IMG/VR virus record: IMGVR_UViG_3300042445_000711
Span: 1 to 64,000 of that record
Source of the DNA: a virus
Strand: one strand, 5' to 3'
DNA: 64,000 nucleotides
Of this stretch, positions 1 through 55,181 are shown piece by piece (position 1 is the first letter of the stretch; each line of letters starts with the position of its first letter). Both the position numbers and the translations under genes were made by a program. Under the pieces are notes generated by a model that was not told where the DNA came from, ran no database searches, and saw nothing but the letters and a program-made list of their open reading frames with translations.

Positions 1-1419
1 AATTGCCAATGCCATAATTAAGTCGTCATTGTATCCTTTCATTGCTTCTGCTCTACCACTATGCCAAACAAATGTAAACATTTCATCAATCAATCTACCA
101 CTACGAATAAGAATATCTTTCTCATTCATATAAGTGTCTAATGCTGAAATAATTAAAGGTCTTGTTTTAGATGTTGTAGAGAAACCTGCAACCATTTGTT
201 TTTCATCTCTGTAAAATCTATTACTCATTTGTCTTTCAACATCAATATATTTTAAGTCATTACTCATATAGAATAGATTTTGGTATCCTCTATCTATAAT
301 TTGTTGAATACATGCCCAACCTACGTTTGAGTTTTCTACTACTAATAATGCATTGTTGTATTCGGTTGCCAATGCAGTAAGAAAGTTTCCAAAATCTTTG
401 GTATCAATCATTCCTCTATACTCCGCAACTTGCGAACAATCTTCAATATCTAAAACTTGTGCAGTTGAATAATCGGCTGCATCTCCTCTTGCAACGTCAG
501 CTACAACCATATATTGTTTATTATAATTTGGATATTCCCATTTCCATAGGTTTCTATCAAATCCTGCTTTCTCAACAGGTTCCATTACATAAGTACTTTT
601 ATACCAAGTTAATAATTCAGGGTCTATTACTGTATCTCCAGAACCAACAAAGTCGCAATCACATTCTTGTGCCGCTCCCTTTGCTCCCAAAATACGAGTT
701 TGCTCATCTCTCCAAGTTTGATTTCTTTCTGGATGAACTGTCCAATGGAGATTTATAGGATTAAATCCATTTGCACCACTTTCTCCCTCTACCCACATTT
801 TGTGAAACCAGTTACCAACACCATTTGGAGTAGATAATACGATTGCAGAACCACCCGTTGATAAGGTTGATTGAGCAGATAACCAAATTTCATCAATATC
901 TCTAATGAATGCAGCCTCATCCACTACTAATAGGGATAGAGCTTCCGAACGTCCTGCATCGGGTGAAGATGCGATTGCTTTGACCTGAGAACCGTTCTTT
1001 AGTTTAAGTGATAGTTTGTTGTCTTCAACCGAAGAGTTCCCACCATCTCTTAACCAAATTGGTAATAAATCGTGCATTACTCTTACCTTTTCTACCAAGT
1101 TCTTTGCAACTGTTACTTTAGTTGCAATAACCAATGCGTTAAAATCTTCATTAAATAACATCTTCCACAAAATAAAACCCGCAGAAAGGGTTGATAAACC
1201 TAACTGACGGGATTTAAGAATAATATTGAAACGGTTTTCTTTAAAGTCTTTTAAACAATCCTCTTGAAACTCATATAAATGAAAAGGTATCTTACCTCTG
1301 GTTGGGTGTTGAATAACACAATATTTTTTCATAAAGTAAATTGGGTCTAACCCACATTTACGATATTCTTCTGCAATAATCTCTTTTAAAGACTTCTTAG
1401 GTTGCCCTTGAACTGCCAT
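1..1419 (-). CDS. terL: Terminase large subunit (T4 gp17-like), 3' end runs off the window
   Basis: Not in the ORF track. Manual translation gives MAVQGQPKKSLKEIIAEEYRKCGLDPIYFMKKY... It contains Walker A KSRQLGLST, Walker B LLVVDEAAF, STPNG, RNase H-like ADVARG and a final GYNDDLIMALAI. The ATG overlaps the TAA of the upstream gene. Confidence 0.95.
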   Translation of the reverse strand, partial: MAVQGQPKKSLKEIIAEEYRKCGLDPIYFMKKYCVIQHPTRGKIPFHLYEFQEDCLKDFKENRFNIILKSRQLGLSTLSAGFILWKMLFNEDFNALVIATKVTVAKNLVEKVRVMHDLLPIWLRDGGNSSVEDNKLSLKLKNGSQVKAIASSPDAGRSEALSLLVVDEAAFIRDIDEIWLSAQSTLSTGGSAIVLSTPNGVGNWFHKMWVEGESGANGFNPINLHWTVHPERNQTWRDEQTRILGAKGAAQECDCDFVGSGDTVIDPELLTWYKSTYVMEPVEKAGFDRNLWKWEYPNYNKQYMVVADVARGDAADYSTAQVLDIEDCSQVAEYRGMIDTKDFGNFLTALATEYNNALLVVENSNVGWACIQQIIDRGYQNLFYMSNDLKYIDVERQMSNRFYRDEKQMVAGFSTTSKTRPLIISALDTYMNEKDILIRSGRLIDEMFTFVWHSGRAEAMKGYNDDLIMALAI

Positions 1420-2048: not shown

Positions 2049-2717
2049 CTATTGTTTTACAAGTTCTGAATGGTTTAATTCAACCAATTTTTCTTCTAAT
2101 GCTAATTTTCTTTCTAAAAGTGCTTCGATTGCATCGTATGCACCGTTTATATCTGTTCTAATATCTTCTTTTACTTTCTCAATATCAATATCCCATTGCC
2201 AATTTGAAATAGTACCATTTTCATTTACCATTTCAACCTGTTGTTTGATACCTTCTAATGCTTCTTCGTATTGAGTTTTTAAATCTCTAACATAACCTAA
2301 TTTATTTAATGTTATTTTGTAATCCTCATAAAACGGCCAAGTACCATCTACTCTTAACTTAGTTTCTTGCTTTGCTAAACAATCTATACAAAGAGTTGTT
2401 TTAACAATTGCCTTTTTATCAGCAGTACTATATTTTATAGTTTTACATTCGGATGAAGAACATTTACTAATTTTTTGTAAGAATTCTCTTACCTTATCCA
2501 TCTTAGTTAGGTTTGTTCTAAACCCATCTTTTTGTTCCCACTCTACACCTTCACCATCAACCCATTTTTCACCAACTTCTCTTTTTTTATCAGCTTCTTT
2601 TTCATAACCAAATGTTGTTTGATTATCATCTGTTCTTCCAAATACTGTATCTATAACTAATTGACGAGATTTGTGAATATTTTTGTTTTTTTCTTCAAAG
2701 GATTTTCTCTTTGCCAT
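2049..2717 (-). CDS. Hypothetical protein with putative Zn ligands and a coiled coil
   Basis: 222-aa ORF with CSSSEC...CIDC and a charged helical C-terminus. Confidence 0.7.
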   Translation of the reverse strand: MAKRKSFEEKNKNIHKSRQLVIDTVFGRTDDNQTTFGYEKEADKKREVGEKWVDGEGVEWEQKDGFRTNLTKMDKVREFLQKISKCSSSECKTIKYSTADKKAIVKTTLCIDCLAKQETKLRVDGTWPFYEDYKITLNKLGYVRDLKTQYEEALEGIKQQVEMVNENGTISNWQWDIDIEKVKEDIRTDINGAYDAIEALLERKLALEEKLVELNHSELVKQ

Positions 2718-2761: not shown

Positions 2762-5700
2762 CTATTCGTAAAAAATACCTAAAATCTGATTTAATGGTGC
2801 AAAAGTTCCTGTAAGTTTATATGTGTTTCCTTTATAAATGAATACAATGCCCTCATTTGGAACTATTTTTTCTAATCCACCAATCGATTGTAATCTTGCT
2901 AATTCTTGTTTTAATTTTTGAATTTTAGTTATATCTCCACTACCTCTTACCTTATCAGCAGTATCTTTTAATCTTTGTTTCATACTAGCAACTGCTGCAT
3001 TTGGATTTGCAGTTAATACCGAATCCATAAATGATAATACATCTGCTCCAACTCCTAAAAATATCTCCTCAAATGGTCTAATGTTTTCTTTTTGTTGTTT
3101 TGCAACATTTACTTTATCATTATCTATTGCCCACTTTTGAGCATCTTTATCAGTAATAGTATTCAAACGGAATGATTTATCACCAAATGCCCATCTGTTA
3201 ATTAAAGCATCTCTTTCTAACTTTTGTAATTTAACTTTACTCTTATCTATAAAGTTTGCCCACCAGGCCTGATGATATTCCGCAACACCATCTCTATTAC
3301 TTAATTGGAATTCAAATTGTAATTTTTGTAATTGTGTTAAATATTTAGTTTGTTTAGAAGCCAATTCTTCATTATTTGGTAATCTAGTTACAGGAGGTCC
3401 TTGAATTGTATATTTTGATTGAACATCTCCATTAACTTGCTTAATCATTCCTGCTAACATCGTTGCTGCCCCTTGATTTGCTCCAACTGCTACACCTTTC
3501 TCATCATAGCAAGTTGTATTGTGGAATACCAATAGGGGTTGTCCGTAAGGTATCACATTTACCGATGTAGGCCAGATAACTTCTAAGTTCATAAAACACT
3601 TACCTTCATCAAATATCTTTTTTCTCTGTGGTTCTGATAACGAACTAATTGCTGCTGATAAATCTTTCATAGCAAAATTGTAAGCATCGGTTAATCCACC
3701 TCTACCTGCAAACTTTGATGCAACATCTTCTATACCCATTGCATTTGCACCCGCATTAGCTAAATTACCTTTGTTTCTTGCTGCAATTAATCTACCATTT
3801 TTCCAACTGATTGCCAGAGCTTGTCCATCGGTTTTTTCTCTAGTCAATTCTAATTTACCAGTTAATGCTCCTGTAATAATATTTTTTAAATCACCAAAAG
3901 TTAATTTCATATCATCAAACGGGTGAGACATGTGTCCGTATGCACCACCTTCTGATATTACAGATTTGTTTACCGATTCATTCATAACTTTACCACCATT
4001 ATTATTAATAAAGTTTTGAATATCAGCCTCATTCTTTGCAACTTCTACATTTTTGTATTTTTGCTTTATTTTATCTATTTCGTTTTGCCTATCACTTGGA
4101 CTTTTCTGGCTTTCTAACCATTTATTTGCATCCGCTCTACTTTTAGATAATTCTATTTCTCTATGTTTCTTTTGAATATTCCAGGGATAATCTTGTAAGA
4201 GAGTTTTATCTTGGATTACTAAAATCTTTTCAATTTTAATGTTTGTAAGAACTACTTCATTCCAATCTGCTTCCCAATGTAATCCATTTGAATTTGAGTA
4301 TGTTTCTTGAAAATCTTTTTTCTTACTCAACATATATCTTTCAGCAGCTTCATAATATTTTTTTATGAATTCAGCTTTTTCTGCATTTGTAATTGTACCA
4401 TCAAAATAATGCTTATTAAACTTTTCTTTATATGGTTGTAATTCAGGTGCAAAATTAAAAACTACATCTTGTTCTCTTCCCAAATTTGCTATTACAGTTC
4501 CAGGATTTACCCATCTTCTACCTTGTTTATCAGGCTCTGTCCACAAATCCATTATACTTTGTGCCAAAATTGTACCTGATAATGCTACCATTACACCACC
4601 TTCTGTCCACAATCCTTTACCTTGTGCAATTTTTCCCCATTTAGTAGTTTTATTGAATGTAGAAATTGATTTTTTAGTTCCTTCTAATGCTGCAACTTTT
4701 GATAAATTTGCAATATCAGTTATGTGTAATGTAGTTGCTTTAATTGGGTTTACTAATTTCTGAACAATATTAAGTGAAAGTGGTAATTTACCAAGCATAC
4801 ATTTTCTAAAAGTGTCTTCTTCCCATTTAATTGCTTCGTTTAAAGATTCTTTTAAAGTTCTTTTTTTAAGAATTATTTGTTGAATTTGTGAAAATATAGA
4901 TTGTATATCTTTATCTAATTGTTTTTCATCTGCACTCATTGGTGATTCAATATCAACATTAGAGTAAAGTTTTTTCTTTTTAGCAATTAGAACATCTACT
5001 TTTTTAATTAAATCATGTCTTACTTTATCTAAATCTTTTATGATTTCTGATGGAGTTTCTTCGTTTACGATTGTAGGAGAATTGGTTTGAAAATCACCTT
5101 TTCTCATTACGGTTTTAGCAATAACTTTATTTGCCATCTTTACAAATGGAATGTTGATATTACTTCTATCGTCTTTAACTACGATTTGATTGTATTTGTC
5201 TAAAAAATCTATGAATTGTTTTTTGTGTCTTCCTAATCTCTTAAAGAAACCAGTTAGTTCTGGTTCGGATATTTCTTTACCATTACGAGTATCATTTACT
5301 CTATCAAAAAAGTGATTACTAAATTCTATGTCAGCAGGGTCTAACTCTCTATCTGCGTATCTTTCAACACTATCCAAATTAGATTGTGTTAATTTTTCAG
5401 TTTTAACAGGTTCGTATCCTCTATCCTCTGTATCTTTTGTAGTTACTTGGTGTCCTGGTTGTTTAGTTCTTTTATCATCAAAATCTATTGTATCTAACTC
5501 AGCAGGATACCCATAATCAGGTGCGTATGCAGATGATTTATGGTGATGATTAAAATTATGGTCAAGAGTTCCGTGAGGTTTGTGATTTTTCGTATTAACC
5601 GATTCACCAATTTTATTTAACTTTTTTTTTTCGATATATTCTTTTAATCCCAATTTATCGGTCATATCAGTTACCTCTTCGTAATCAGTATCTCTTAATT

Positions 5701-8563
5701 GGGCTTCGATTTCTCTTTTACTTGCATTTGGGTCATTACAAACTGCTACTCCAATTTTCTTTTTACCATATGAATTTGCTTTATCCCACAATTTCATAAT
5801 TGCTTTGAAGTGCCAATCGTTTGAACCAACTTCATCAAATACAGATTGTGGATTTGGTTTTGCTTTTTCTCCTCTTGGTATTCTAAATGTAGTTGCAACT
5901 TTACCGTTGATTGTTGGCATTCCGTGGTCATCAGTACCAAAATCTTTTGCTACAACTTTTTTGTTTTTGAATTTACCCATTAAAACAGTATCACCCTTAT
6001 CAACATCTATATTGATGTCTTCATTGTAAATTGTTTTATTTAACTTACCATATTCTCTTAATAATATGGCTGCTATTGAATTTGCTTTGTTTTCAACAGT
6101 TGAACCAGTTGCTCCATCTCTTACTGAATCACCAATCAATCCCATTTCATCTTGCTTTCTATGAACCATTTCATGTGCAATAGTTCTTAAAATATCAGCA
6201 GTTAATCTGCCTTCGGTTGCTACAAATATTTCTTTAGAATCAACATTGTATCCACCCAATGAATGGTTTTGTCTTGAAAACTCAGGGTCTTCTACTAATG
6301 TTACTTTTGGTTGTTCTTTTAATTTTAATCTTTTGGTTGCATATTCTACAAAATTACTTACATTTTCTCTTTTTAATGGAGAAATTTGTTCTTGTATTGG
6401 TTTTAATAATTTTGCCGTTTCAAGTCCTTTTTGTTTTTCTTCCTTTTCTTTTTTAGCTTCTGAATATGATTTCATTGTTTCAAACATCTGTTGTGATGTT
6501 GGTTTGAAATCTTTCATTTTTTCCAAAATAGTTGCCACCAAATTCATAAGTAAATCTGCGTTTTGTTTTGTTTCATCTTCCGGCTTAGCATCTTCGGACA
6601 TAACATAACTCATTGCATTGTGGAATAATTTACCTATATGTGGAACAACTCCTACGGTTGCAACACCAGCTCTTGCTGCTATTTTTTCAGCTTGCTCAAA
6701 CTCAAATCCTGCACCTAATCCTAATGCTTCAAATCCGCAATGTTTTGCAAAATCTACTCCCATATGGCTTACAAATCCAGTAACTCCATGAGAAAGTGTT
6801 TCTCCCGCACCACTAAGTGCAGCTTGCCCCAAACCACCAAGTGCTCCTCCTCCCGCTAAATGACCCATCACTCCACTAACTGCTCCACCGGCAATAACTG
6901 CTCCTGCTATTTTAGCTGCATCAATTGCCGTTGCTTTTGCTGCTTTTTTCTGTTTTTCTGCTGCATCTTTATTAATTCCCCACTTTCCATCTTTACCCTT
7001 TTCGTAACCAAATTGCAATCCTTTACCATGTGATAAAGAAGTTGCTAATGATTTTATACCTTTTCCAGTATTTTTAAGTTGATGATATTTGTGCTTTGCA
7101 ACATCATATGCACCTTTTACCATATTATCTGGAAACTCTGCCATAAAATCCGCAGCACGGTCTACAAATCCTTTTCTAGTTTCAGATTCAGGGTTTGCCA
7201 TTTCATGTGCATCGTGGTGTTCTTCTGTATTAAAATCTTTCCAAAGTGCCGATGCTTCTTTTTTAATAGAATCACTTGCATCATTAAAAAATTCTTTGAA
7301 TGAAGCATATTTTTCAGCTTTTTTATCTTGTGGTGTTTTTTCAGCTGATGATTTTAATTCATCACCACTTAATGTTTGTGCAGGTGGTGTTTGTTCTGCT
7401 CCTTGTGGTGTAGGAGTTCCTCCTTTTGCCTTATCTGCTTTACCTTGTTGGGTTTGTCCTTGTTTAACTGGTTGACCAGGTTCAGAAGGTTTTGCCGATT
7501 GGGTTGCTGCTTTACCTGGCTCAGCAAGTTTTTTTGGTTGATTTGCAGGTGCATCTGTTGGTCCTTTTGCCATTGCATTAGGTTTATCACTACCAACCAT
7601 TTTAGTAGCTTGAACGTGTGCAGGATGGTCTTTTGCTAATCTTAATGCACTCTTAACTTTAATTTTCTTTTTAGTTCCATCTGAAGCAGTATAATCAAAC
7701 TCCTTATCCATAATAGGATTTGGTGCTTCTGTAAAGTATGAATCTACAAACTCTTTAAACATTTCTTCTGCAAGAACTCTATCAATTATATGTCCAATTG
7801 GGTCATATAAACTTTCATTCTTATACCAATCTGGTTCGTCCGATGGGTGTTCTATTTGATGTCTTGTTGGCTTTGGTTCAGGTCTTAATGCAGAAGATGG
7901 TTCTGTGTTATTTGATTCGTTTGCAGAACCAGTTGGTGCTCCATTAATATATCCACCTGGAAGATTTAATCCTGTTCCGATTCCTCCTGGAAAACCATCT
8001 TCATTTAATTTGTTTGTTATCATTTTAAAAATATCTGCATTAAACTTTGGATATGCTTTTAAGAATCCTTTCTTTTTAGATTCATCATCTCCACTACCTA
8101 ACCAATTACGAACATCCGTTCCACTAATTGGACTTGATTCGGCAGGAACTGCGTAAGTATATCCTATCTCATCATAACCATATCCCGTTTTACCTTTATA
8201 TGGTTTAAAATATTTACCACTTAATCTACTTTCATCTTTTTCCCCAACTGCCGCAATATAAGCAGTAGTTTTACCATCAAAAGATGATAATATTTCTTTT
8301 GGAGCATATGGGTTTGATACTTGAATAAATTTATCAGATGGAACATTAAACATTTTAGTTGCAATTTCCTTCTTTTCTTTAAAATCAAATGGAGATTTTG
8401 GACCAGATGTACTATTAGATGTTGCAATATATACATTCTCCTTACCAAACTTTTTAGCAAGTTTTAGATAGGATACATAGTGTCCAGCATGGAATGGTTG
8501 GAAACGTCCTGAATATACTACAACTAAATCCGTTACTTCCGGCTTATCTACTTCTAATTTCAT
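2762..8563 (-). CDS. 1933-aa mosaic protein: HxGH nucleotidyltransferase, Gly-zipper segment, HExxH metallopeptidase-like domain, small domains and a C-terminal ligase-like nucleotidyltransferase
   Basis: Motifs GRFQPFHAGH and ISGTDVR; LRTIAHEMVH; EKTDG...NLEVI...VFH...EGIVF...KLTG. Confidence 0.85.
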   Translation of the reverse strand: MKLEVDKPEVTDLVVVYSGRFQPFHAGHYVSYLKLAKKFGKENVYIATSNSTSGPKSPFDFKEKKEIATKMFNVPSDKFIQVSNPYAPKEILSSFDGKTTAYIAAVGEKDESRLSGKYFKPYKGKTGYGYDEIGYTYAVPAESSPISGTDVRNWLGSGDDESKKKGFLKAYPKFNADIFKMITNKLNEDGFPGGIGTGLNLPGGYINGAPTGSANESNNTEPSSALRPEPKPTRHQIEHPSDEPDWYKNESLYDPIGHIIDRVLAEEMFKEFVDSYFTEAPNPIMDKEFDYTASDGTKKKIKVKSALRLAKDHPAHVQATKMVGSDKPNAMAKGPTDAPANQPKKLAEPGKAATQSAKPSEPGQPVKQGQTQQGKADKAKGGTPTPQGAEQTPPAQTLSGDELKSSAEKTPQDKKAEKYASFKEFFNDASDSIKKEASALWKDFNTEEHHDAHEMANPESETRKGFVDRAADFMAEFPDNMVKGAYDVAKHKYHQLKNTGKGIKSLATSLSHGKGLQFGYEKGKDGKWGINKDAAEKQKKAAKATAIDAAKIAGAVIAGGAVSGVMGHLAGGGALGGLGQAALSGAGETLSHGVTGFVSHMGVDFAKHCGFEALGLGAGFEFEQAEKIAARAGVATVGVVPHIGKLFHNAMSYVMSEDAKPEDETKQNADLLMNLVATILEKMKDFKPTSQQMFETMKSYSEAKKEKEEKQKGLETAKLLKPIQEQISPLKRENVSNFVEYATKRLKLKEQPKVTLVEDPEFSRQNHSLGGYNVDSKEIFVATEGRLTADILRTIAHEMVHRKQDEMGLIGDSVRDGATGSTVENKANSIAAILLREYGKLNKTIYNEDINIDVDKGDTVLMGKFKNKKVVAKDFGTDDHGMPTINGKVATTFRIPRGEKAKPNPQSVFDEVGSNDWHFKAIMKLWDKANSYGKKKIGVAVCNDPNASKREIEAQLRDTDYEEVTDMTDKLGLKEYIEKKKLNKIGESVNTKNHKPHGTLDHNFNHHHKSSAYAPDYGYPAELDTIDFDDKRTKQPGHQVTTKDTEDRGYEPVKTEKLTQSNLDSVERYADRELDPADIEFSNHFFDRVNDTRNGKEISEPELTGFFKRLGRHKKQFIDFLDKYNQIVVKDDRSNINIPFVKMANKVIAKTVMRKGDFQTNSPTIVNEETPSEIIKDLDKVRHDLIKKVDVLIAKKKKLYSNVDIESPMSADEKQLDKDIQSIFSQIQQIILKKRTLKESLNEAIKWEEDTFRKCMLGKLPLSLNIVQKLVNPIKATTLHITDIANLSKVAALEGTKKSISTFNKTTKWGKIAQGKGLWTEGGVMVALSGTILAQSIMDLWTEPDKQGRRWVNPGTVIANLGREQDVVFNFAPELQPYKEKFNKHYFDGTITNAEKAEFIKKYYEAAERYMLSKKKDFQETYSNSNGLHWEADWNEVVLTNIKIEKILVIQDKTLLQDYPWNIQKKHREIELSKSRADANKWLESQKSPSDRQNEIDKIKQKYKNVEVAKNEADIQNFINNNGGKVMNESVNKSVISEGGAYGHMSHPFDDMKLTFGDLKNIITGALTGKLELTREKTDGQALAISWKNGRLIAARNKGNLANAGANAMGIEDVASKFAGRGGLTDAYNFAMKDLSAAISSLSEPQRKKIFDEGKCFMNLEVIWPTSVNVIPYGQPLLVFHNTTCYDEKGVAVGANQGAATMLAGMIKQVNGDVQSKYTIQGPPVTRLPNNEELASKQTKYLTQLQKLQFEFQLSNRDGVAEYHQAWWANFIDKSKVKLQKLERDALINRWAFGDKSFRLNTITDKDAQKWAIDNDKVNVAKQQKENIRPFEEIFLGVGADVLSFMDSVLTANPNAAVASMKQRLKDTADKVRGSGDITKIQKLKQELARLQSIGGLEKIVPNEGIVFIYKGNTYKLTGTFAPLNQILGIFYE

Positions 8564-8589
8564 ATGTATAAATATCTCAAAATTTAAGA

Positions 8590-33500: not shown

Positions 33501-34490
33501 TCAAATATACGAAAAAAAATTCAGATTAACAACTGTTTCTATCCATTTATTTTTATCAGTAAATTTTTCCAATCCTTTCTTTAATCTATCAAATTGTTTT
33601 TTATTTTTTTCAAATCCATCTTCTAATATTCGTAGATACTGATAATGAAATTGTTTTTTATTCATTGCTCTGTATCTGTATTTAATATCTTTCATCCAAT
33701 CAGAATGTATTATAGGTAATTTGCCATTATCTATTGCATCAAATATTGCATATCCAAATGGTTCTTTGGTATAACAACCGTGAAATATCTTGAATTGTTT
33801 TTGAAAAAATGTGTTGTGGAAACGATAATCAAATTCTATAAAAGTATGCACATCTGTATTTATCTTACTACCCTCCAACATTCGTTTATAATCGTATTTG
33901 TTTGAAAATATGAAAGCAGGTATCCCATCTAAGTAATGAGCATTTTTTCTTGTTTCACATCTTGCAGCATAACCAATCTTATTACTTACTACCTCTGTAT
34001 ATGGTTTGTTTTGTTTCCATTCATAGTAGTTTGGTATTGTAATTGTATTTGGATAGTATGTATGTATTGTATCTTTTTCATAACCTATCCATACGATATT
34101 TTTAGAATTGTCCAAAATATCCTTTTGCCAATGCCAATCCATTCTTGTCATTAGATTTTCGTACTCATCATTTAATCCCAACATATCAGGAATAAATGCA
34201 TGAACAAACGTTGTGTGAGTTTTGTGAAGATACTTTTTGATTATAGGATTTGGTTTGTAAGAATGGTGTAAAAAAACTATTTTATCACATTCATCTAATA
34301 TCCTATCTATTTCTTCATCATTTCCAAAAGTGTAGATTGCATCTTTTTCTGGCAATAGGGGTCTACCATCAACTACAATTTTATAATCTTCTGTAACTAA
34401 TGGTAAGATGCTCTCTACAAAGTTGTTACACCATATATCAGAACCACCTACTATATTTTTTCCGTAACCAGTTGTAATGAATACTATCAT
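33501..34490 (-). CDS. GT-B fold glycosyltransferase (GT4-like)
   Basis: N-terminal VGGSD, YAARCETRKN, EPFGYAIFDAI..GKLPI. Confidence 0.8.
   Translation of the reverse strand: MIVFITTGYGKNIVGGSDIWCNNFVESILPLVTEDYKIVVDGRPLLPEKDAIYTFGNDEEIDRILDECDKIVFLHHSYKPNPIIKKYLHKTHTTFVHAFIPDMLGLNDEYENLMTRMDWHWQKDILDNSKNIVWIGYEKDTIHTYYPNTITIPNYYEWKQNKPYTEVVSNKIGYAARCETRKNAHYLDGIPAFIFSNKYDYKRMLEGSKINTDVHTFIEFDYRFHNTFFQKQFKIFHGCYTKEPFGYAIFDAIDNGKLPIIHSDWMKDIKYRYRAMNKKQFHYQYLRILEDGFEKNKKQFDRLKKGLEKFTDKNKWIETVVNLNFFSYI
33502..33533 (-). promoter_or_regulatory. Bacteroidota-type primary-sigma promoter ahead of the minus-strand arm of the island
   Basis: GTTG-N20-TATATTTG on the minus strand (consensus TTTG-N19-21-TAnnTTTG). 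Confidence 0.65.
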
Positions 34491-37400
34491 ATAGAACCAC
34501 TAATTCTTGCTTCTAATTCTTCTACTCTTTTATTTAAGTCTTGTACTACCTTCACCATAGATGAAAATATAGATTGATAATATACACCATCTACACTTCC
34601 AGAATTATCATGAATTACCCAATCGGTATATCCCAAATCAGAAACTTCTTCTGCTATAAGTCCTGAGTGCAATGCATTTGAAACTGTTGTATCTTTATCT
34701 TTAAAAGATACAATATTTAAATCTAAAATTCTTTTTGCAGATTCTAATGGTAGGGGGTTTATTTCTTTTTTATATTTTCTGGATGATGACACCTTTTTTA
34801 CACGTCCACTGGTATCAACACCTAAAGTAGTTAAACCAGATGCTGAATATAAAAAATCAAATGTTAATGAATCCGAATGACCACCTTGATTGGTATCATT
34901 TTGATATAATCTGATTCTCTGTGTAAACATTGAATAATCATACACCAAACTACCAAATCCAGAACCTACAAAGTCTATACCACTTGATGTTAATCTTAAT
35001 TGACCAAATGTTATACCTAAACTATTTAAAGTAGCACTACCTGCCGTTACATCTCCTGAAAATGAACCACCTGTAGCAGTAATATTTCCTCTAAATGATG
35101 CGTTACCACTACTATCTATAAAAAAGTTTTTTGCAGAAATCCATCCACCTGAACCTAATCTAATACCACTTGTTGTGAAAGAACCATCACCACCACCTGC
35201 TGCATTTGCGGTTAATTGTGAAGCCGACATTGACCAACCACCAATTGTTCCCGATGTTGATTTCAAAATACCAGCGGGTGTTACACTAAATGGTGCATCA
35301 GCAAATGTTGCATTACCCAAATAAATACCATTACTATCTGCTTTAAAAATGCTATTACCACTACCGATTGCAATACCTCCTGTAAATGTGCCAGTTGCCG
35401 CTGATATATCTCCACTAAATGTTCCACTTCCGTTTATTGAAAGTACACTACCATTAAATGAAAGTTTATCACCTAATGAAAAATTACCAGTACTATCCAC
35501 ATAAAATCCAGTATTTGAATTTCCGTATGTACCACTACCTATATAAATTCTTTTATTTACACCATCTAATACAATACCCGCATCACCTACTCTAAATTGA
35601 TTACTAAAATATCCAATAGTTCCACCAATTACAGGTGCAAAAATTGTTGTAGAACTTATGAATGCTCCTGTATAACCGCCATCTGCTAAAGATTTAACTT
35701 GTGCCGCTGCGGAAGCAAATGCCGCATTTGATTTGGATGTAGCATCAGATGAGGCAGTTGCTATTGCATCATTTTTTGCATTATTTGCTTTAGTAGTTGC
35801 ATCACTAGCTGCAGTTGCTATTGCATCATTTTTTGCATTATTTGCTTTAGTAGTTGCATCACTAGCTGCGGTTGATATTGCAGTATCGGCTTTTGATTGG
35901 GCACCAGATGTTGTTTCTGCGTTACCACCGGTTACTGTTATAGAACCATTTACTGATAAGTTTGTTCCATCGTAAGATAATTTATTACCTAATGAAAATT
36001 TACCCGTACTATCTAAATAAACATTTGTATTTGTATTATTAAATGCTCCTGAATATTCATTATACACCGTATCAGATGGATTTACTATTCCACCAATAAA
36101 TATTTTTCTAGGGTTTTGTCTTGCATCTAAATAAATTGATGGGGTTGTACCAACTTTAAATAATTCACTAAAGTATCCAAGTTGTCCACCAATAACAGGA
36201 GAATAAATTGAATCATTTTCTATAAATGTTCCTGAATATCCACCATTTGCTAATTGTTGTACTCTTGCAAAAGCATCTGCTTTTGCATTACTAATACTTG
36301 TACTTACACTACTACTTAAAGATGTAATTGATGCAGATACCGAACCACTTAGTACTCCGATTGTACCACTTACAGAACCACTTAACACTCCAATAGTTCC
36401 ACTTACAGAACCACTTAGTGTTACTATAGAACCACTTACAGAACCACTTAAAGTAACTACACTACCACTAACTACCGATAAACTACCACTAACAGATGAA
36501 CTATTATTTGTAACCGTTCCACTAATAGAAGATGATACTCTATTTAAATCTGCTAAAGATTGAGATGTAGATGAACTAATTAAAAGTATAGTACCACCAA
36601 TATTTGTATTACCACCAGTAAATGTTGCACTCTGAGTTACTTCAACGGGTACATAATTATTATTTATATCGTAAAATTCAAATTTAAAATTAAATGTTTC
36701 ATTACCCAATACTGTTGGCATTGTTGTAATAAATCCAATTTCATCAGGTGAGAATGCCGTATCTTCTGATAATTTTAAACTAATATTACCCAAATGCCAT
36801 TCTCCTTGTGATTGTGAAAAATATAAAGATGCAGTTGGGAAATCTCTATCTATTTTAAAAGGTATAGTTGTATCTAATAAATTTTTAGTTGGTTGTGTTC
36901 CTGCTAAAGTTGCAATACTACTACTTGTTGAACCTGATACTAAATAAATTCCTAAATTACTATCTATTGATGATGAGTAAAATACATCTAAATTTAATTC
37001 GTAAGTATTTGTACTTTTTAAATCTAAAGATTGTGTATATGTAAATAAACCACTACCTGTCAATCTAACACCCGCTTCAACTCTACTCGATGTAAGGAAC
37101 GCATTTAATGAACCTGTATTCCATTGAGTTTTTAAAACTTCAGATGTAAATATACCTGTATTACCAACTACACTACCTGTAAGTTCATCTGTTGTTAATA
37201 ATTCTTTTGATTCAACTAATATATCTTGTATTAAATCATAATCGGAAATATCACCAATTGATGTTCTAAAAACTTTTACTCTTTTTACATCACCCGCAAA
37301 TGTTTCTAAATTTGAAAGTTTTATATTAGCAAAAGATTGAGTAACTGCCGATGCAACTTTTGTATCACCAACAAATGAATAAATTGGATTTAATATTTCA

Positions 37401-37921
37401 CTAATGGAAGCAGTTGGTCTTCTATAAAACCTAATTCTTGTATCATTTGCTAAAGATGGTACTACGTTAATTTCTTTTTGCCACTTAACGTTATAACTAC
37501 CTTCCCAATTTGCAGGTATAGGAGTATTTATTCCATTATTATCATATGATGCCAATTCACCTAATATTGTAATAGTAGATGGACCATATGCAGTATCCGG
37601 ATATATGTAAACCGAAACTACTTTAGAAACACCTTCATAATATTCAGTTACAATTGGTTCTCCGTTTACTGATGCTGAAACTATACCTTCACCTGGTTCG
37701 TGGTATATTATATCACCTTTTGAATCTTTTAATTCAATTTTTATTAAACTATCGGCAACCAAATATTCTGAACCTTGTATAAGGAATGCGTTTTTACCAC
37801 CAGTAAATGTATCGGGAAGTTCTGTTAATTTAAAATATTTGCTTAACGGGTCTGTATCTGTAACAAATGTATTATATTTGTCTAAATTATCAGCAAATAA
37901 TGTTTTTTTAATGATTGCCAT
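34487..37921 (-). CDS. Tail fibre/spike protein with C-terminal peptidase S74 intramolecular chaperone
   Basis: Gly/Ser-rich beta repeats. C-terminus has SSRKYKKEI...GLIAEEV...VQDLNKRVEELEARI. Confidence 0.9.
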   Translation of the reverse strand: MAIIKKTLFADNLDKYNTFVTDTDPLSKYFKLTELPDTFTGGKNAFLIQGSEYLVADSLIKIELKDSKGDIIYHEPGEGIVSASVNGEPIVTEYYEGVSKVVSVYIYPDTAYGPSTITILGELASYDNNGINTPIPANWEGSYNVKWQKEINVVPSLANDTRIRFYRRPTASISEILNPIYSFVGDTKVASAVTQSFANIKLSNLETFAGDVKRVKVFRTSIGDISDYDLIQDILVESKELLTTDELTGSVVGNTGIFTSEVLKTQWNTGSLNAFLTSSRVEAGVRLTGSGLFTYTQSLDLKSTNTYELNLDVFYSSSIDSNLGIYLVSGSTSSSIATLAGTQPTKNLLDTTIPFKIDRDFPTASLYFSQSQGEWHLGNISLKLSEDTAFSPDEIGFITTMPTVLGNETFNFKFEFYDINNNYVPVEVTQSATFTGGNTNIGGTILLISSSTSQSLADLNRVSSSISGTVTNNSSSVSGSLSVVSGSVVTLSGSVSGSIVTLSGSVSGTIGVLSGSVSGTIGVLSGSVSASITSLSSSVSTSISNAKADAFARVQQLANGGYSGTFIENDSIYSPVIGGQLGYFSELFKVGTTPSIYLDARQNPRKIFIGGIVNPSDTVYNEYSGAFNNTNTNVYLDSTGKFSLGNKLSYDGTNLSVNGSITVTGGNAETTSGAQSKADTAISTAASDATTKANNAKNDAIATAASDATTKANNAKNDAIATASSDATSKSNAAFASAAAQVKSLADGGYTGAFISSTTIFAPVIGGTIGYFSNQFRVGDAGIVLDGVNKRIYIGSGTYGNSNTGFYVDSTGNFSLGDKLSFNGSVLSINGSGTFSGDISAATGTFTGGIAIGSGNSIFKADSNGIYLGNATFADAPFSVTPAGILKSTSGTIGGWSMSASQLTANAAGGGDGSFTTSGIRLGSGGWISAKNFFIDSSGNASFRGNITATGGSFSGDVTAGSATLNSLGITFGQLRLTSSGIDFVGSGFGSLVYDYSMFTQRIRLYQNDTNQGGHSDSLTFDFLYSASGLTTLGVDTSGRVKKVSSSRKYKKEINPLPLESAKRILDLNIVSFKDKDTTVSNALHSGLIAEEVSDLGYTDWVIHDNSGSVDGVYYQSIFSSMVKVVQDLNKRVEELEARISGSI
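35754..35867. repeat. Exact 57-bp tandem duplication (AASDATTKANNAKNDAIAT x2) in the tail fibre
   Basis: Identical units start at 35754 and 35811, with degenerate flanking copies. Confidence 0.9.
36340..36525. repeat. Degenerate 33-bp (11-aa SGSVSGT/SxxxL) tandem repeats in the tail fibre
   Basis: Recurrent ccacttacagaaccactta; the protein reads SGSVSGTIGVL twice plus variants. Confidence 0.8.
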
Positions 37922-37936
37922 TCGTAATATCTTTAA

Positions 37937-37946
37937 TATAAATATC
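37937..37946 (-). promoter_or_regulatory. GATATTTATA motif upstream of the tail fibre
   Basis: Same motif as upstream of other structural genes. Confidence 0.6.
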
Positions 37947-42939: not shown

Positions 42940-43185
42940 TTATTTTAATGTTACTATTGGGTATCCACCAGAATCCTCTGGTATTTTATTTTTTATATCT
43001 TCTGCATTTGGATAATCATCTGTTAAAAATATGTGAACATATTTATTAAAATTTTCTTCTAATATAAATTCTTTTAGTAATTCTCCATTTTCTAATAAAA
43101 GAATACCAAATAATTTATCATCAATTAATTGAGCATTAGCTTCATTAATTAAAAAATACTCAAATGCTTCTAGTTGTAGTTCCAT
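42940..43185 (-). CDS. Hypothetical 81-aa acidic protein
   Basis: Co-oriented ORF preceded by GATATTTATA. Confidence 0.7.
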   Translation of the reverse strand: MELQLEAFEYFLINEANAQLIDDKLFGILLLENGELLKEFILEENFNKYVHIFLTDDYPNAEDIKNKIPEDSGGYPIVTLK

Positions 43186-43199
43186 AATATTATTTTATA

Positions 43200-43209
43200 T
43201 ATAAATATC
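43200..43209 (-). promoter_or_regulatory. GATATTTATA motif
   Basis: Intergenic, 15 nt upstream of the ATG at 43185. Confidence 0.6.
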
Positions 43210-45757: not shown

Positions 45758-46381
45758 TTATTGAACGTAAGTTACGGTAATTGGAATAGTTTGTGAACCT
45801 CCTGTTTCATTACCATAAACTGTAATAGTAGTTCTAATGGTAGATGTTAAAGATGGGTTTGGTATAAATTTAAATGTTAATCCTTTAGATACTGCCGCAG
45901 TTGCAGATACATCATCTCCGATAAAGATAGGTACTGAACCTACTTCCGATGTTACACCCGAACCAATAATATCACCTGCGTTTTTGTTTGATAATACAAT
46001 AGTATATCCTAAACTTCTATTTCCCGCTGGAGATGTTGTTGGTGATAAAGCAACTTCACCACTTTTTTGATTAACTGCAATATTAGGAACTCCAAATTCA
46101 ACAATCGGAATACGAGTTGTATTTTTTGGAAGGGTTACTAACTTATACTTCATTACCTGTGTTTCATCAGGATTTGCTTCCAATACAGGCATATTTTTAA
46201 TTGCTGCATCGTAGTAAGATGAACCAAGTGGATGAGCCGGCTCATATAATGAATAATCAATCTCATCATCTGCTAATGCAAATTGAGTGATGTTTAAACC
46301 TTGTCCCGCTGCCAGTTTTTCTCTACCTTTTTTTGTAAGGATTGCATCTACTGTTAATTCGGTATTACTTAAATATCCCAT
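45758..46381 (-). CDS. Virion baseplate/tail-collar-like structural protein
   Basis: DAILTKKGREKLA..ITQFALADDEIDY resembles the N-terminus of tail-collar fibre domains. Confidence 0.72.
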   Translation of the reverse strand: MGYLSNTELTVDAILTKKGREKLAAGQGLNITQFALADDEIDYSLYEPAHPLGSSYYDAAIKNMPVLEANPDETQVMKYKLVTLPKNTTRIPIVEFGVPNIAVNQKSGEVALSPTTSPAGNRSLGYTIVLSNKNAGDIIGSGVTSEVGSVPIFIGDDVSATAAVSKGLTFKFIPNPSLTSTIRTTITVYGNETGGSQTIPITVTYVQ

Positions 46382-46403: not shown

Positions 46404-46412
46404 TATAAATAT
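46404..46412 (-). promoter_or_regulatory. ATATTTATA motif
   Basis: Intergenic, upstream of the ATG at 46381. Confidence 0.55.
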
Positions 46413-46429: not shown

Positions 46430-49400
46430 TTACTCTACTTCCAAAATTGGTTCGTTTGCACTTCTACCTGCTTTATTAACCTTTAATGTATTAGGATTAG
46501 ATACAAATGTTTCAACTGGTGAAGAACCATCTAATGTAGTTGCTGCCGTATTTTTTGAACCATTATAAAAAGAATTTTGCAATCCTCTTGTCAAATCCGT
46601 TGTGTTTCTATAATGTGTTGGTAAATATCCATTTAAAGGAATTACTTCAATAATACTACCCGTCCCTGCGTTTATTGTTTTAGAACCTGAGAATGGTTGT
46701 ATATTTAAATTGGTTTCATAATAAACAGATGAGGTTAAAACAAAACCGTCTTTTATATCACCAATACCATTTACTGTTGTTTTATATTTTAAAGTTTTTC
46801 TTGTTTTTTGTTCTTTAACTAAATCAACTTTAACTCTTTCTTTTACTCTTCTATTGTTTTTATCAAAATATGTTCTAATCGCGTGTCCATCTTGTGCGTA
46901 TAATCCAAATCCAATACTTTCATAATCAGTTTGACCAACTATAATACTACTATTGATTAAATCAATTTCAGTAACTATTGTTGGGTCTTCTAATCCTGCA
47001 TCTATTGTAACTTCTTTTTGATAATATTCTGCACCTACTAATGTAGTTTCTGTATTTTGGATTTCAGTATCATATTGATAATTTTCAGCAATTAAATTTT
47101 CACTTAAATTTGCATCAATTACAGTTTCTTTTTGATTATTTTCTCCAGTTAATAAATATTGAGAATTTGCATCTAACGTTACTTCTTGTTGAAAATTTTC
47201 AGAAGTCAATACAGTTGAATCATCATAATGTATTACAGATTCGTATTGATTATTTTCTCCAGTTGGTTTCTTTTGAGCAATTTTACTTCTTTCTAAAAAA
47301 TGTGGTTCAATTAAAAGACCTGTTGTTGCTTTAACTCTAGCAGGCAACATATTTTTAATATCTTCAAACATAGATTTCTCATACAACTTAATTAAGTTAA
47401 TATAAGCATATATGTCTATGTTATTAAATCTTTTAAAATAATATTTTCTTAAATCATCTAAACCTCTATAATTTGTTTTGTATCTATCCGATGGGTCACC
47501 AATATAATTATCTAAATTAATACCACCAAACGATTTAGCAATATCAATATTCAACTCTTTTGTAGGAGAAAAGAATAAACCAACTCTATTAGAATCCGTT
47601 GGTGCTTGGTCTAATGATTTTCTAGTAGCTCTACTATTAACCGATAAATCTGTTACTAATGTTTGTTCTTCAAAACGAATTTTATTAGTTGAATATCTCG
47701 ATGAACCAACATCTGGTATATCTAACACAACTGTTCTATCTATTGCTTCAAAATTATATGGATACGATACTGCATTTGAAAAACCATAAGCACTTGCCGA
47801 ATATGATGCAGAAGGATTTTCTGAAAATAATAAAGAAGTATTTCCATCTTCGTAATTATTTCTTGTTAAACTTCCACTAAAATAAATATTAGTATCAACA
47901 TTTGGTAAAGATGCAGATGGGTATAAATTTTTTGGATATTCAAAATCTAAACGGAAAAACAAATCATCAGTAGATGCCGAAACGTGATTACCATTAATCA
48001 TTTCAGGAAACGAAACGTGCTCAAAAAATCTTTCTCTTTCCAATGGTGTACTCCATAAACGGAATTCATCGATACTACCACTAAAGTTTCCACCTAGTGT
48101 AATTAAAGAACCATTATTCCAATTAGAACTACCACTTGAAATACTTGCAGATATAGTATTTTGAAATAAAGTTCTTTCTTTATCTGATTGTCTAACATTT
48201 AATTCAAAATTATGAAAACTACCAGTAACTTCTCTACTTACTGATATACCAAAAAATGAACCATTAAATATTGGTAAGATAGAAGAACTAATTCCGTTTG
48301 AACCAGAATAATCAAATATTACATACCCATTATTACTATTAGCAGAACCACTTACTTTTACATCCCAACCACTACCTGAAATTAAAGTATATTCTCCACT
48401 TGTTGCAGGTTTTACAAAAAATTCAATGGTATCGGGTTTTCTATTTCTTTCAGTATCTTTCCATTGAAAATCAATTTTAGAACCACTTGTCATTTTAAGA
48501 GCAGTTGTAATGTTATCCATTATCAATTTACTCCTATTAGTATCCGTTACTTCCGGTCCTCCAAATTCTAAAATAGAAAGATTTGATGATGGAATACCAT
48601 AGCAACTTAATAAAGCATATATACCTCTTCTTGTACCTTTGTGTTTTAATAAATAAGGTAAGTTATTTACAATTCTTCTCCAAACTTCATTTGTTCTTTC
48701 TTTACCAGGTGAAGCATTTACAACACTACCATCTATATTTTTTCCAAATACATAATTCCAAAGTTTAGAATCGGAAGCTAAATTCTTAGCATTCCAATCA
48801 AAAGATTTAAGTGTTTCAAATAAAAGTTTATCTGAAATACCATTTTTTGATTTATAACCCAAACCTCTACTTTTTTCAATTGATTTTGTATAAAAATATA
48901 TGTTGTCAAAATGTTGTCCAATCATTGATAAAAATAATAACATACTTTCATTTTCTGTATTATTTACAATAAATTGTGGAATGTTGTTTTGAACCCAATT
49001 TGGATTTTCTATATCAAAATCTTCGGATAATGTTATAATAGTTTCATACCAATCAGTTACTTCCGTTGTACTACTTAATTTTCTAATACTACCGTTATGT
49101 GGCCAACTTAATGAAGATGATGTGTATAAGAATTTTTCAAATCCATCAAATCCATTTACTAATTGATTTTTCTTTAATAATTGTTTATCACGTTCTTGTA
49201 TTGCAGATAATGAACCAGTATGTCCAGATAAGTATGGGTCATAATAAGATGCAGATATTAAAGATTCATAATTTTCAATTAATTGAACTTTATAAACAAA
49301 ATTATCTACTCTTTCTTTTGCCGAACTAAAGTGTACAAAATTATCCCAAGCATATGTAGAACCTGTTACATATTCAATATTCAAATCATCTGTACTAACT

Positions 49401-51353: not shown

Positions 51354-51363
51354 TATAAATATC
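51354..51363 (-). promoter_or_regulatory. GATATTTATA motif
   Basis: Intergenic, upstream of the ATG at 51340. Confidence 0.6.
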
Positions 51364-54096: not shown

Positions 54097-55181
54097 TAGG
54101 ATACTATTTCAAATATATATTTATCATCTATGATTGTAGTTATTCCACTTTCAATTATTTTTATTTTTAATCGGTATGTTCTATTAATAGGTAGTGTTGA
54201 TAAATCCATTATAAAATAATTAGATGTAGAATCACAACTTACTTTAGTATAATCACCGAATGGGAATATTACTTCTTCTGTTATATAATCTTCTATTTGA
54301 TATTGAGTTGAACCAGATGGTAAATATTTAACTTGGTCATATGAGAATGTTGTTCCAAATGTTTTTAATGGATACATATCTCTACCTTTTAATCTAATTT
54401 TTACTTTTGTATTAGTAACATACTGATTTTTTAAATTACTAACAACAACTTTATATTCATCTTGTGCCGAACCAGTTACAGGTGTTAAACTTCCAGTTGA
54501 AAAAGAACTATCATCCCAAACTAATTCTAATTTTGGTTCGTAAATAGTACCAGTTTCTTTTGAAAAGAATTTAACAACTCCATAATCTAATTCATCATTT
54601 TCTGCATCAATACTATGTCTAATTATAAATCCATTATTCTTTAAAGAACCACTAACCCATTGATGCATTATGTTGGTAACATTCATTCTAATATCATCTG
54701 GCTCATTACTAAACGATTGTGTTGCTGAACCTGTAATGAACCAAGTTCCACCTTCTGCGTTTGCTGAACCTGTTGTTCCTGCTACAAATACTGCCGTACC
54801 TGCCGTTACATTATCTTGCCATGTAGCTATACCATTTCTATATTTCCAACTAACACCATCAGATGTTATATTATCAAATTTTGTTCCCGTACCCATTGTC
54901 CAACTTTGAGAAACTGCATTTGCATAAATTGAATACTCTAATGGGATTTCTTCAGAGTTAGCAGAACGCAATACTAAATATGTTTCCCAACTACCTGTTC
55001 CTATTGATTGTATTTCTGACTTAATTGAACCTGTATCAAATTTAATTAAAGTTCTAGCTATATCTTTTGTAGAACCATAATATAATTTACCAACTTCCAA
55101 CATTTCATCCCTACCTGCGTTCTGGTCTGGTTGTTGTAAGTATATACTTGCGTCAAATGATGATGTGAAAAATTTATGCAT
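54096..55181 (-). CDS. Putative virion protein with a DNRLRE/CBM96-like domain
   Basis: DASIY..QNAG.DEMLEV, RTLIKFD, NNGFII, KFFSKET...PKLEL. Confidence 0.65.
   Translation of the reverse strand: MHKFFTSSFDASIYLQQPDQNAGRDEMLEVGKLYYGSTKDIARTLIKFDTGSIKSEIQSIGTGSWETYLVLRSANSEEIPLEYSIYANAVSQSWTMGTGTKFDNITSDGVSWKYRNGIATWQDNVTAGTAVFVAGTTGSANAEGGTWFITGSATQSFSNEPDDIRMNVTNIMHQWVSGSLKNNGFIIRHSIDAENDELDYGVVKFFSKETGTIYEPKLELVWDDSSFSTGSLTPVTGSAQDEYKVVVSNLKNQYVTNTKVKIRLKGRDMYPLKTFGTTFSYDQVKYLPSGSTQYQIEDYITEEVIFPFGDYTKVSCDSTSNYFIMDLSTLPINRTYRLKIKIIESGITTIIDDKYIFEIVS

Follow-up and report, generated by a model that had tools for sequence, protein, structure and literature searches.

The prohead proteases of the bacteriophages T4, phiKZ, and SPN3US all cut their substrates after Glu (PMC5694885), and the T4 enzyme, gp21, trims Alt and the internal proteins IPI to IPIII and breaks the core proteins down into peptides (PMC9958956). 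Polyvalent proteins were likened to viral polyproteins by Iyer, Burroughs, Anand, de Souza, and Aravind in 2017 (PMC5512222). In this study, we analyzed a window of 64,000 nucleotides (positions 1 to 64,000 of IMG/VR record IMGVR_UViG_3300042445_000711), which belongs to a 75.5-kb phage contig that is ~40% complete and has a G+C content of ~29%. Its minus strand carries a 1933-aa open reading frame (ORF), here called P0001, which is open throughout (1933 codons plus stop). P0001 is probably a modular cargo polyprotein: we infer that it is packaged in the prohead and cut there by a Peptidase_S77 protease, and that its pieces are injected. A preliminary description of the same DNA had proposed about 10 products; about 12 are predicted here.

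2762..8563, minus strand: P0001, predicted modular cargo polyprotein (ORF; homologues)

The closest experimental precedents are T4 IPI to IPIII and Alt, together with the phiKZ and SPN3US ejection proteins, which are processed more than once, and the closest concept is the polyvalent protein (PMC5512222). As in T4, the P0001 gene stands among head genes, in a T4-type head module with an S77 protease, the cuts predicted here follow Glu with a hydrophobic residue at P3, and the T4 cargo likewise includes an enzyme (Alt) that is delivered with the DNA. However, each T4 cargo protein is a separate polypeptide that is trimmed a single time, at an N-terminal capsid-targeting sequence of ~10 residues, whereas P0001 consists of ~12 modules in one chain, with internal sites, no recognizable targeting sequence, and modules that are shuffled at the sites. 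The ejection and inner-body proteins of phiKZ, 201phi2-1, and SPN3US are also cut after Glu (A/S/G-x-E) by a gp21-related protease, and some offer it several candidate sites; the resulting products are ejected into the host, as is predicted for P0001 (PMC5694885, PMC10052503). In those phages, the P3 residue is small rather than hydrophobic, long propeptides are lost, and the proteins have not been described as consisting of independent enzyme modules that shuffle.

P0001 resembles the polyvalent proteins in being a large chain of unrelated enzymatic domains, including a putative small zincin-like peptidase, that is encoded beside virion genes and predicted to be packaged and injected (PMC5512222). 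Its ~12 modules, among which a nucleotidyltransferase (NTase), a putative zincin, and a ligase-fold domain were identified, lie within the range of 2 to 15 unrelated domains per polypeptide given for that class. None of the hallmark domains of Iyer et al. (ART, PBECR/BECR RNase, DdrB-ParB, and methylase-SNF2) was detected above threshold in P0001, in which a RegB_T4 match is only subthreshold. Iyer et al. propose release by embedded peptidases, whereas the joints of P0001 match a trans-acting prohead protease and most relatives have no zincin. The pair of an NMNAT-like and a ligase-fold domain was not among the domains in the searched portions of PMC5512222, where the word "prohead" occurs in the reference list only. 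No description of polyproteins jointed by prohead-protease sites was found in searches of open-access papers and bioRxiv preprints.

Predicted cleavage motif at the module junctions

At least 1212 homologues of P0001, with lengths of 1063 to 3383 aa and some on contigs of up to ~250 kb, are present in public metagenomes; no phage record matched the region by megablast. BLAST of 120 homologues against P0001 delineated a conserved N-terminal part (residues 1 to ~985) and a conserved C-terminal domain (residues 1527 to 1933), and between them lies a variable cassette region in which blocks are absent, inserted, or reordered. The preliminary description had named module shuffling at hydrophobic-x-Glu sites as a check on its proposal, and insertion, loss, and reordering were found exactly there. 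Each block in the relatives ends in hydrophobic-x-Glu and the next block follows directly, as in ...SPTIVNE↓ITQGLYAG...KSSAFNE↓ETASEII..., ...EKKNLNE↓KLTQSNL..., ...GYEPVKE↓ETAS..., ...QPKLNE↓AIKWE..., and ...KKTLNE↓DLLLE↓GGAYGH (predicted cuts are marked with arrows). There are inserted modules flanked by the motif on both sides (e.g., IVNE↓...AFNE↓ and KLSE↓...IVNE↓). The tail of a block is constant whatever block comes next: SPT(I/M)VNE, KSSAF(N/K/G)E, GYEPVK(T)E, or QPKLNE. The unit of exchange is therefore a module together with its C-terminal tag.

Junctions were defined without reference to the motif, as collinear pairs of high-scoring segments (identity, ≥60%) that abut in one protein and lie at least 30 residues apart in the other, which yielded 332 intervals (median width, 5) from 121 homologues. 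The Glu of [ILVMFY]xE falls within 241 of these intervals (73%), compared with 42.8 ± 6.3 (13%; maximum, 60) under random placement, and where no Glu was scored, the motif mostly lies just beyond the ±1 window. As controls, [ILVMFY]xD is depleted (10 intervals versus 35.6 expected), and [ILVMFY]xQ occurs in 20 versus 14.6. The intervals are related by descent, so that these figures overstate their independence; the variety of module pairs is nevertheless large. Among 41 junction contexts deduplicated at 62% identity, P3 is Val in 12, Leu in 9, Phe in 5, Ile in 4, and Tyr in 2 (32/41 together), P2 is Asn in 22, and P1' is variable; the junction consensus of the lineage is (V/L/F/I)-N-E↓.

The joint before the C-terminal domain, which begins with GGAYGH, was compared across the loci of 79 relatives. 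The preceding residue is Glu in all 79, encoded by GAA in 71 and by GAG in 8, whereas P2 (T, N, L, M, S, or H) and P3 vary in both residue and codon; the constraint therefore acts on the peptide and not on the DNA. A fixed DNA recombination site at the joints was ruled out, since residues and codons vary. Nearly all of these loci have tandem sites of the form hydrophobic-(N/K)-E↓x-L-L-x-E↓GG. Furthermore, free-standing homologues start exactly after predicted cuts, either with MGGAYGH (P0244 and P0269) or with MDKP... N-termini.

In P0001 itself, every motif example listed in the preliminary description is present, at E188, E279, E657, E725, E848, E911, E1168, E1239/E1243, E1529, and E1538, and three candidate sites are added here, KIGE987↓, VKTE1055↓, and RGE899↓. 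Enrichment over the whole protein was rejected, because the counts are at background: [ILVMFY]xE occurs 40 times (36.8 ± 5.1 in shuffled sequences) and the strict T4 form [IL]xE occurs 15 times (16.9 in shuffled sequences). Any claim must therefore rest on the position of the motif. The 121 homologues place homology breaks in P0001 at 984-987 (KIGE↓), 1054-1056 (VKTE↓), 1163-1170 (IVNE↓), 1238-1242 (LKE↓SLNE↓), and 1522-1533 (VMNE↓), each at or beside a candidate Glu; an additional zone at 1475 lacks the motif. Relatives have insertions at E848, which is an insertion hotspot, and at E899/E911. Among 33 representatives below 80% identity, E279, E725, and E848 are 97 to 100% conserved amid poorly conserved surroundings, and E188 is conserved in 61%. 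The statement that the motif stands at nearly every domain boundary thus holds insofar as the motif marks real module boundaries; it is not enriched overall, and ~29 copies fall inside modules.

Head-maturation protease of the lineage

Peptidase_S77 (PF03420, gp21-type) was detected above the Pfam cut-off in all four large relatives (E values of 3e-30 to 4e-32), of which G001 is 245 kb long with terminal repeats and three are rated at least 90% complete by CheckV. In these four, the S77 gene lies 8 to 10 kb beyond the 3' end of the polyprotein gene. Microcystis phage Mel-JY01 and the 484-kb phage LR756508 also encode Peptidase_S77, which is thus present in six of the six larger relatives tested. 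The gene order in G001 is polyprotein, 222-aa protein, 215-aa protein, terL, 186-aa protein, portal, small proteins, protease, acidic scaffold-like protein, and major capsid protein, and the first four genes of this order match those of the window. The gp21-type protease assumed in the preliminary description was accordingly located in the head module of the lineage, as seen in relatives, the contig itself being a fragment. Its placement of the P0001 gene near terL was likewise borne out: the gene, which lies among late or virion genes, is two genes away from terL and stands at the start of the head module in G001.

Other head proteins of the relatives fit the hydrophobic-x-Glu rule. The major capsid protein of five relatives keeps QLL(D/S)E↓A(T/N)RTGTS ~17 residues before a conserved VALPLVRR segment, which is presumably the position that corresponds to the maturation site of T4 gp23. 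The G001 protease (L087 8064-8654) has the N-terminus MSKGLLIE↓ and carries PMNE↓S right after its S77 domain; T4 gp21 loses nine N-terminal residues (PMC9958956), and the proteases of giant phages trim their own C-termini (PMC5694885). Small head-module proteins of G001 (L087 3278-3781, 7335-7649, and 8916-9353) start with MRLLDLIPLKE↓M, MKLHQLRE↓, and MIRLKDLLSE↓A, which resemble T4 capsid-targeting sequences.

Processed or intact chain

Several observations weigh against processing in the prohead. A T4-like 10-residue capsid-targeting sequence is not present at the N-terminus of P0001 (MKLEVDKPEV), where the NTase fold begins at about residue 14; 81 of 110 relatives carry only a 5- to 6-residue MN-hydrophobic-x-E↓ (MN(L/I)xE↓) within nine residues, and other relatives start with MDKP. 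In P0001 alone, the depletion of interior motifs is not significant (29 versus 33.2), E657 is a weak site that is conserved in only 30 to 45% of the representatives, and VKTE1055 departs from the strict motif, with its hydrophobic residue at P4. No match to PF03420 (S77) or PF04586 (S78) was obtained in the 75.5-kb contig; this absence is uninformative, because the contig is ~40% complete and ends in terL, 8 to 10 kb short of the expected position. GGAYGH is preceded by Glu in 98 of 125 distant representatives, by Cys in 13, by Met in 11, by Ala in 2, and by Ser in 1, and the Leu-Leu ahead of this position is kept in the 27 without Glu. The LLxE peptide could thus be partly structural or have a second role, or the junction could be uncut in some lineages. 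Neither a virion proteome of any family member nor a paper on Mel-JY01 was found in open-access papers and bioRxiv preprints.

The contexts before GGAYGH are lineage specific, for example, KELLLM↓GG and NP(L/I)xx(R/K)xLLxC↓GG, and where the residue is not Glu, the protease may have another specificity, an internal start may be used, or the junction may go uncut. In P0024, P0137, and P0159, the ligase-like domain is immediately preceded by an in-frame module that has a Ros/MucR-type zinc finger and an HNH-like motif (HLDHKYSI). The module is bounded by ...NE↓GGAY and ...LL(L/Q)C↓GGAYGH, with GGAY duplicated on both sides and Cys at P1, and looks like an in-frame homing-endonuclease insertion.

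P0001 might never be cut and might instead act as one intact multienzyme chain, packaged or cytoplasmic, in which the motif would reflect how the modules are built or linked, or would arise from the way in-frame recombinants survive. We regard this as unlikely. It would agree with the background count of the motif in the whole protein, the lack of significant interior depletion in P0001, and the 22% of distant representatives that have Cys, Met, or Ala at P1 with Leu-Leu retained; cleavage is deduced from sequence rather than observed, and N4 vRNAP is an example of a polyvalent protein that is packaged without processing (PMC5512222). On the other hand, the junction signal is specific for Glu, with Asp depleted, and calls for a hydrophobic P3, in keeping with the specificity rule of the protease family that the lineage encodes. 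Tandem sites 4 to 9 residues apart (LKE↓SLNE↓ and VMNE↓SVNKSVISE↓) are poorly explained as structure, and free-standing homologues start exactly after the Glu. In addition, hydrophobic-x-Glu is selectively depleted within the ligase-like domain: 124 representatives have 704 copies versus 898 expected (ratio, 0.78), in a test that rests on one family of related sequences. The ratios for hydrophobic-x-Asp, -Gln, and -Lys in the same domain are 1.23, 1.08, and 1.15, and in 48 other proteins of the contig, all four ratios are 1.08 to 1.15 (hydrophobic-x-Glu, 1.13). Such a depletion is consistent with selection to avoid internal sites where a protein encounters a Glu-specific protease.

Modules and domains of P0001

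The predicted modules are listed below from the N-terminus to the C-terminus.

8000..8563, minus strand: residues 1-188, putative HxGH nucleotidyltransferase (NMNAT-like), ending in KLNE188↓ (PF01467, phrog_395, motifs)
7727..7999, minus strand: residues 189-279, Gly/Pro-rich linker and helix, ending in YFTE279↓ (conservation of E279)
6593..7726, minus strand: residues 280-657, basic Pro/Ala/Gln-rich low-complexity stretch, helices, and Gly/Ala-rich hydrophobic segment (~540-650), ending in VMSE657↓ (read from the sequence)
6389..6592, minus strand: residues 658-725, helical segment, ending in PIQE725↓ (E725 100% conserved; local conservation, 0.47)
6020..6388, minus strand: residues 726-848, putative minimal zincin-like metallopeptidase with HEMVH at 797-801, ending in IYNE848↓ (AlphaFold2 [AF2], Foldseek; E848 100% conserved)
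5831..6019, minus strand: residues 849-911, small beta module (DINIDVDKGD...FRIPRGE899↓...VFDE911↓) (junctions in relatives)
5603..5830, minus strand: residues 912-987, module ending in KIGE987↓ (most frequent homology break of the family, 984-995)
5399..5602, minus strand: residues 988-1055, movable module A (SVNTKNHK...GYEPVKTE1055↓) (order differs or absent in P0003, P0008, and P0014)
5060..5398, minus strand: residues 1056-1168, module B, ending in IVNE1168↓ (phrog_14518)
4835..5059, minus strand: residues 1169-1243, helical module C, with the tandem end LKE1239↓SLNE1243↓ (absent or replaced in many relatives)
3977..4834, minus strand: residues 1244-1529, module D of 286 aa, ending in VMNE1529↓ (junction zone 1522-1533, n = 17)
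3950..3976, minus strand: residues 1530-1538, 9-residue spacer SVNKSVISE1538↓ between two sites (tandem sites in relatives)
2765..3949, minus strand: residues 1539-1933, divergent RNA-ligase-fold domain, predicted covalent nucleotidyltransferase (KTDG at 1577-1580, EGIVF, YKLTG) (AF2, fold matches)

The N-terminal module is assigned from its sequence as an HxGH nucleotidyltransferase. It matches PF01467 with 22.2 bits (cut-off, 21) and phrog_395 with an E value of 1.5e-9, its best matches are of the NMN adenylyltransferase/NadM type, and it contains FHAGH at 24-28 and PISGTDVR at 145-152, corresponding to HxGH and ISxT. A PDB sequence search with P0001 gave only NadM, for this N-terminus (2qjt; E = 0.0077). 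At the end of the following linker, E279 and its P3 residue are 100% conserved in the 33 representatives, with a local conservation of 0.55.

The C-terminal domain (residues 1539 to 1933) was predicted by AF2 with a predicted local distance difference test score (pLDDT) of 93.6 and a predicted template modeling score of 0.89, and only its first three residues are disordered. The leading Foldseek matches are all ligases, and the VIA Z scores are 9.2 for Naegleria Rnl5 (6vt3; root mean square deviation of 3.9 over 186 aa), 8.7 for T4 Rnl1, 8.6 for REL1, and 8.0 for Rnl2. The model thus places the domain in the covalent nucleotidyltransferase superfamily; these middling Z scores indicate the superfamily and not the subfamily. 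In the numbering of the domain, 42 diverse sequences share K39, D41, G42, E366, and G367 without exception, and at least 90% of them have K378. With the ATP-dependent RNA ligases (Naegleria Rnl5, T4 Rnl1/Rnl2, trypanosome REL1, and fungal Trl1), it shares the adenylyltransferase fold (Z scores of 8 to 9.2 over ~185 residues) and motifs I, IV, and V, whereas its 395 residues are only 9 to 14% identical to them and include a helical insertion of ~200 residues, and neither an OB nor another known C-terminal domain nor a Pfam match is present. Clustering at 50% identity leaves 1807 representatives of this domain family, and of the 150 listed, 133 align from GGAYGH onward. The core of the family is made up of the NTase and the ligase-fold domain, which are directly fused to each other in Mel-JY01 and occur together in 102 of 147 representatives. 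Roles of this pair in RNA repair or in NAD-related counter-defense are guesses.

The putative zincin is the best-predicted part of a poor long model, with pLDDT values of 70 to 89 for residues 734 to 841 and a drop thereafter. Its Foldseek matches are weak (abylysin [probability, 0.85], jannalysin, IrrE, and SprT; all E values ≥0.36), and no Pfam match was obtained. The free-standing 124-aa protein gp332 of Synechococcus phage B23 spans residues ~721 to 848, in line with E725↓...E848↓. This HExxH domain, with its weak fold resemblance to minimal zincins, raises self-cleavage as an explanation, either before packaging or after injection, and autoprocessing by embedded metallopeptidase domains was proposed for polyvalent proteins by Iyer et al. 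(PMC5512222). We surveyed 147 representatives of the C-terminal domain family (50% clusters) for the zincin: 84 of the 98 with Glu before GGAYGH have no detectable zincin, and 75 of those 84 have at least 60 aa upstream. Self-cleavage is therefore quite improbable. The 639-aa protein of Mel-JY01 has ...NLYKE↓GINNNIIAE↓GG and no zincin, and in P0001, the zincin itself behaves as another module, ending in IYNE↓. Moreover, zincins usually select P1', whereas the junctions are constrained at P3 and P1 and variable at P1'.

The small beta module, present in 44 of 147 distant representatives, has junctions in relatives at RGE↓ and at ..E↓VG(S/P)NDW. Module A ends in VKTE in P0001 and in PVKE, PVEE, or SLKE in relatives. 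Module B has a subthreshold match to RegB_T4 (E = 0.061; 13.8 bits versus a cut-off of 27) and homologous segments in genes of Flavobacterium, Methylophilales, Paraglaciecola, and Sinorhizobium phages, of which that in gp190 of Flavobacterium phage immuto ends in IALE↓. The immuto protein starts with MKKSQLRQIIKE↓A and resembles a small two- or three-module polyprotein with module B. Module D has pLDDT values of only 50 to 83 between residues ~1248 and 1523. In the ESM Atlas, modules B and D matched only unnamed viral clusters below 0.9, which is not informative. The AF2 model of residues 734 to 1933 with 17 close homologues was poor (mean pLDDT, 43) and of no use as a test of domain boundaries, and Foldseek with it gave nothing at E values of ≤0.001.

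An insertion hotspot follows residue 530. Residues ~540 to 650 (~6614-6946) form a conserved Gly/Ala-rich hydrophobic stretch with regularly spaced His (IAGAVIAGGAVSGVMGHLAGGGALGGLG...), which may be glycine zipper-like and membrane active; it is found in only 6 of 147 distant representatives. The long low-complexity and helical parts of residues 280 to 725 would suit a protein that is packaged and cut by the prohead protease but serves mainly as scaffold, inner-body, or space-filling core material, with fragments that are expelled or structural, like T4 gp22/gp67/gp68 and the phiKZ inner-body proteins, rather than injected as effectors. The protease sites and head context apply equally to such a role, and the degradation of core proteins to peptides by gp21 (PMC9958956) provides a parallel. 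It is nevertheless very unlikely, given that the invariant parts of P0001 are two predicted enzymes with intact catalytic motifs (HxGH/ISxT and KxDG/EG/K). Modules of P0001 also occur independently elsewhere, including several as free genes outside the head modules of other phages, which fits autonomous functions.

Neighboring genes and upstream element

Two small genes separate the P0001 gene from terL, and a baseplate wedge gene lies at 55181-57211.

1..1419, minus strand: terL, large terminase subunit, running off the contig end (phrog_2, E = 1.3e-45)
2049..2717, minus strand: conserved 222-aa Cys-rich neighbor gene (homologues adjoin the NTase-ligase gene in relatives)
8567..8574, minus strand: gaTATTTATA, candidate late or structural promoter specific to the lineage, 3 nt upstream of the P0001 ATG, reading TATAAATA on the plus strand (conserved in relatives)

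The 222-aa Cys-rich coiled-coil protein directly downstream of P0001 has the same position in G001 (76% identity), LR756508 (36%), and Mel-JY01 (31%), which suggests that it is a conserved partner of the NTase-ligase gene.

Of 26 distinct regions upstream of polyprotein genes in relatives, 24 have the element gaTATTTATA in the corresponding position, and in the remaining two it lies an additional 19 to 29 nt upstream of the called ATG; the flanks differ completely among the 26. It recurs 13 to 22 nt upstream of four other minus-strand genes (34487-37921, 42940-43185, 45758-46381, and 46430-51340), as minus-strand copies at 37937-37944, 43200-43207, 46404-46411, and 51354-51361, and it also precedes several head-module genes of G001. 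It is probably the structural-gene promoter of the lineage, and given the 3-nt spacer, the P0001 mRNA could be nearly leaderless. The preliminary description had read a late motif at this position. As a T4 late promoter, TATAAATA at 8567 was rejected, being on the wrong strand and not enriched (18 versus 21.3 expected in the window), whereas coexpression with the head genes is retained through gaTATTTATA. Seventeen of the 18 TATAAATA words in the window are on the plus strand, though most genes are on the minus strand. Two of the genes with the upstream element are further giant ORFs, at 46430-51340 (minus strand; 1636 aa), which has no PHROG match, and at 34487-37921 (minus strand; 1144 aa), of which only the C-terminus matches minor head and tail proteins.

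Proposed processing and its implications

In the mechanism that we propose for P0001 as a packaged and cut polyprotein, a T4-like phage of ~200 to 250 kb would express the polyprotein along with its head genes and incorporate it into the prohead, where the gp21-type (Peptidase_S77) maturation protease would cut after Glu in (V/L/F/I)-x-E, preferring -N-E. About 12 pieces would result, including an NMNAT-like nucleotidyltransferase, a Gly-rich hydrophobic segment, a minimal zincin, several small cassettes, and a divergent RNA-ligase-fold enzyme, and these would be retained in the capsid and would accompany the DNA into the host. With a C-terminal cleavage tag of its own, each module could be inserted, lost, or reordered without loss of processing. 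More tentatively, and short of calling it probable, we suggest that prohead-protease sites serve as universal, self-contained joints, the (V/L/F/I)-N-E tag of each module allowing T4-like phages to plug new enzymes into one capsid-loaded chain. One targeting event and one protease would then provide a changing arsenal of injected proteins, and the protease would have shaped the cargo sequence, as in the internal depletion of the motif. Such a scheme would be a bacteriophage counterpart of the viral polyproteins, not described in the literature searched.

Should loading and cutting of P0001 proceed as predicted, a single gene would allow T4-like phages of natural waters to deliver a dozen proteins, among them an NAD synthesis-type enzyme and a new RNA ligase-type enzyme. 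The cleavage tag would account for the evolution of the cargo set by cassette exchange. Capsid cargo of uncultivated phages could be predicted from it by a simple sequence rule, and the arrangement would suggest a natural way to load several foreign proteins into T4-type capsids. The idea of the polyvalent protein would be extended from embedded peptidases to the head-maturation protease. The family is large, as the cluster representatives of the ligase-like domain alone indicate.

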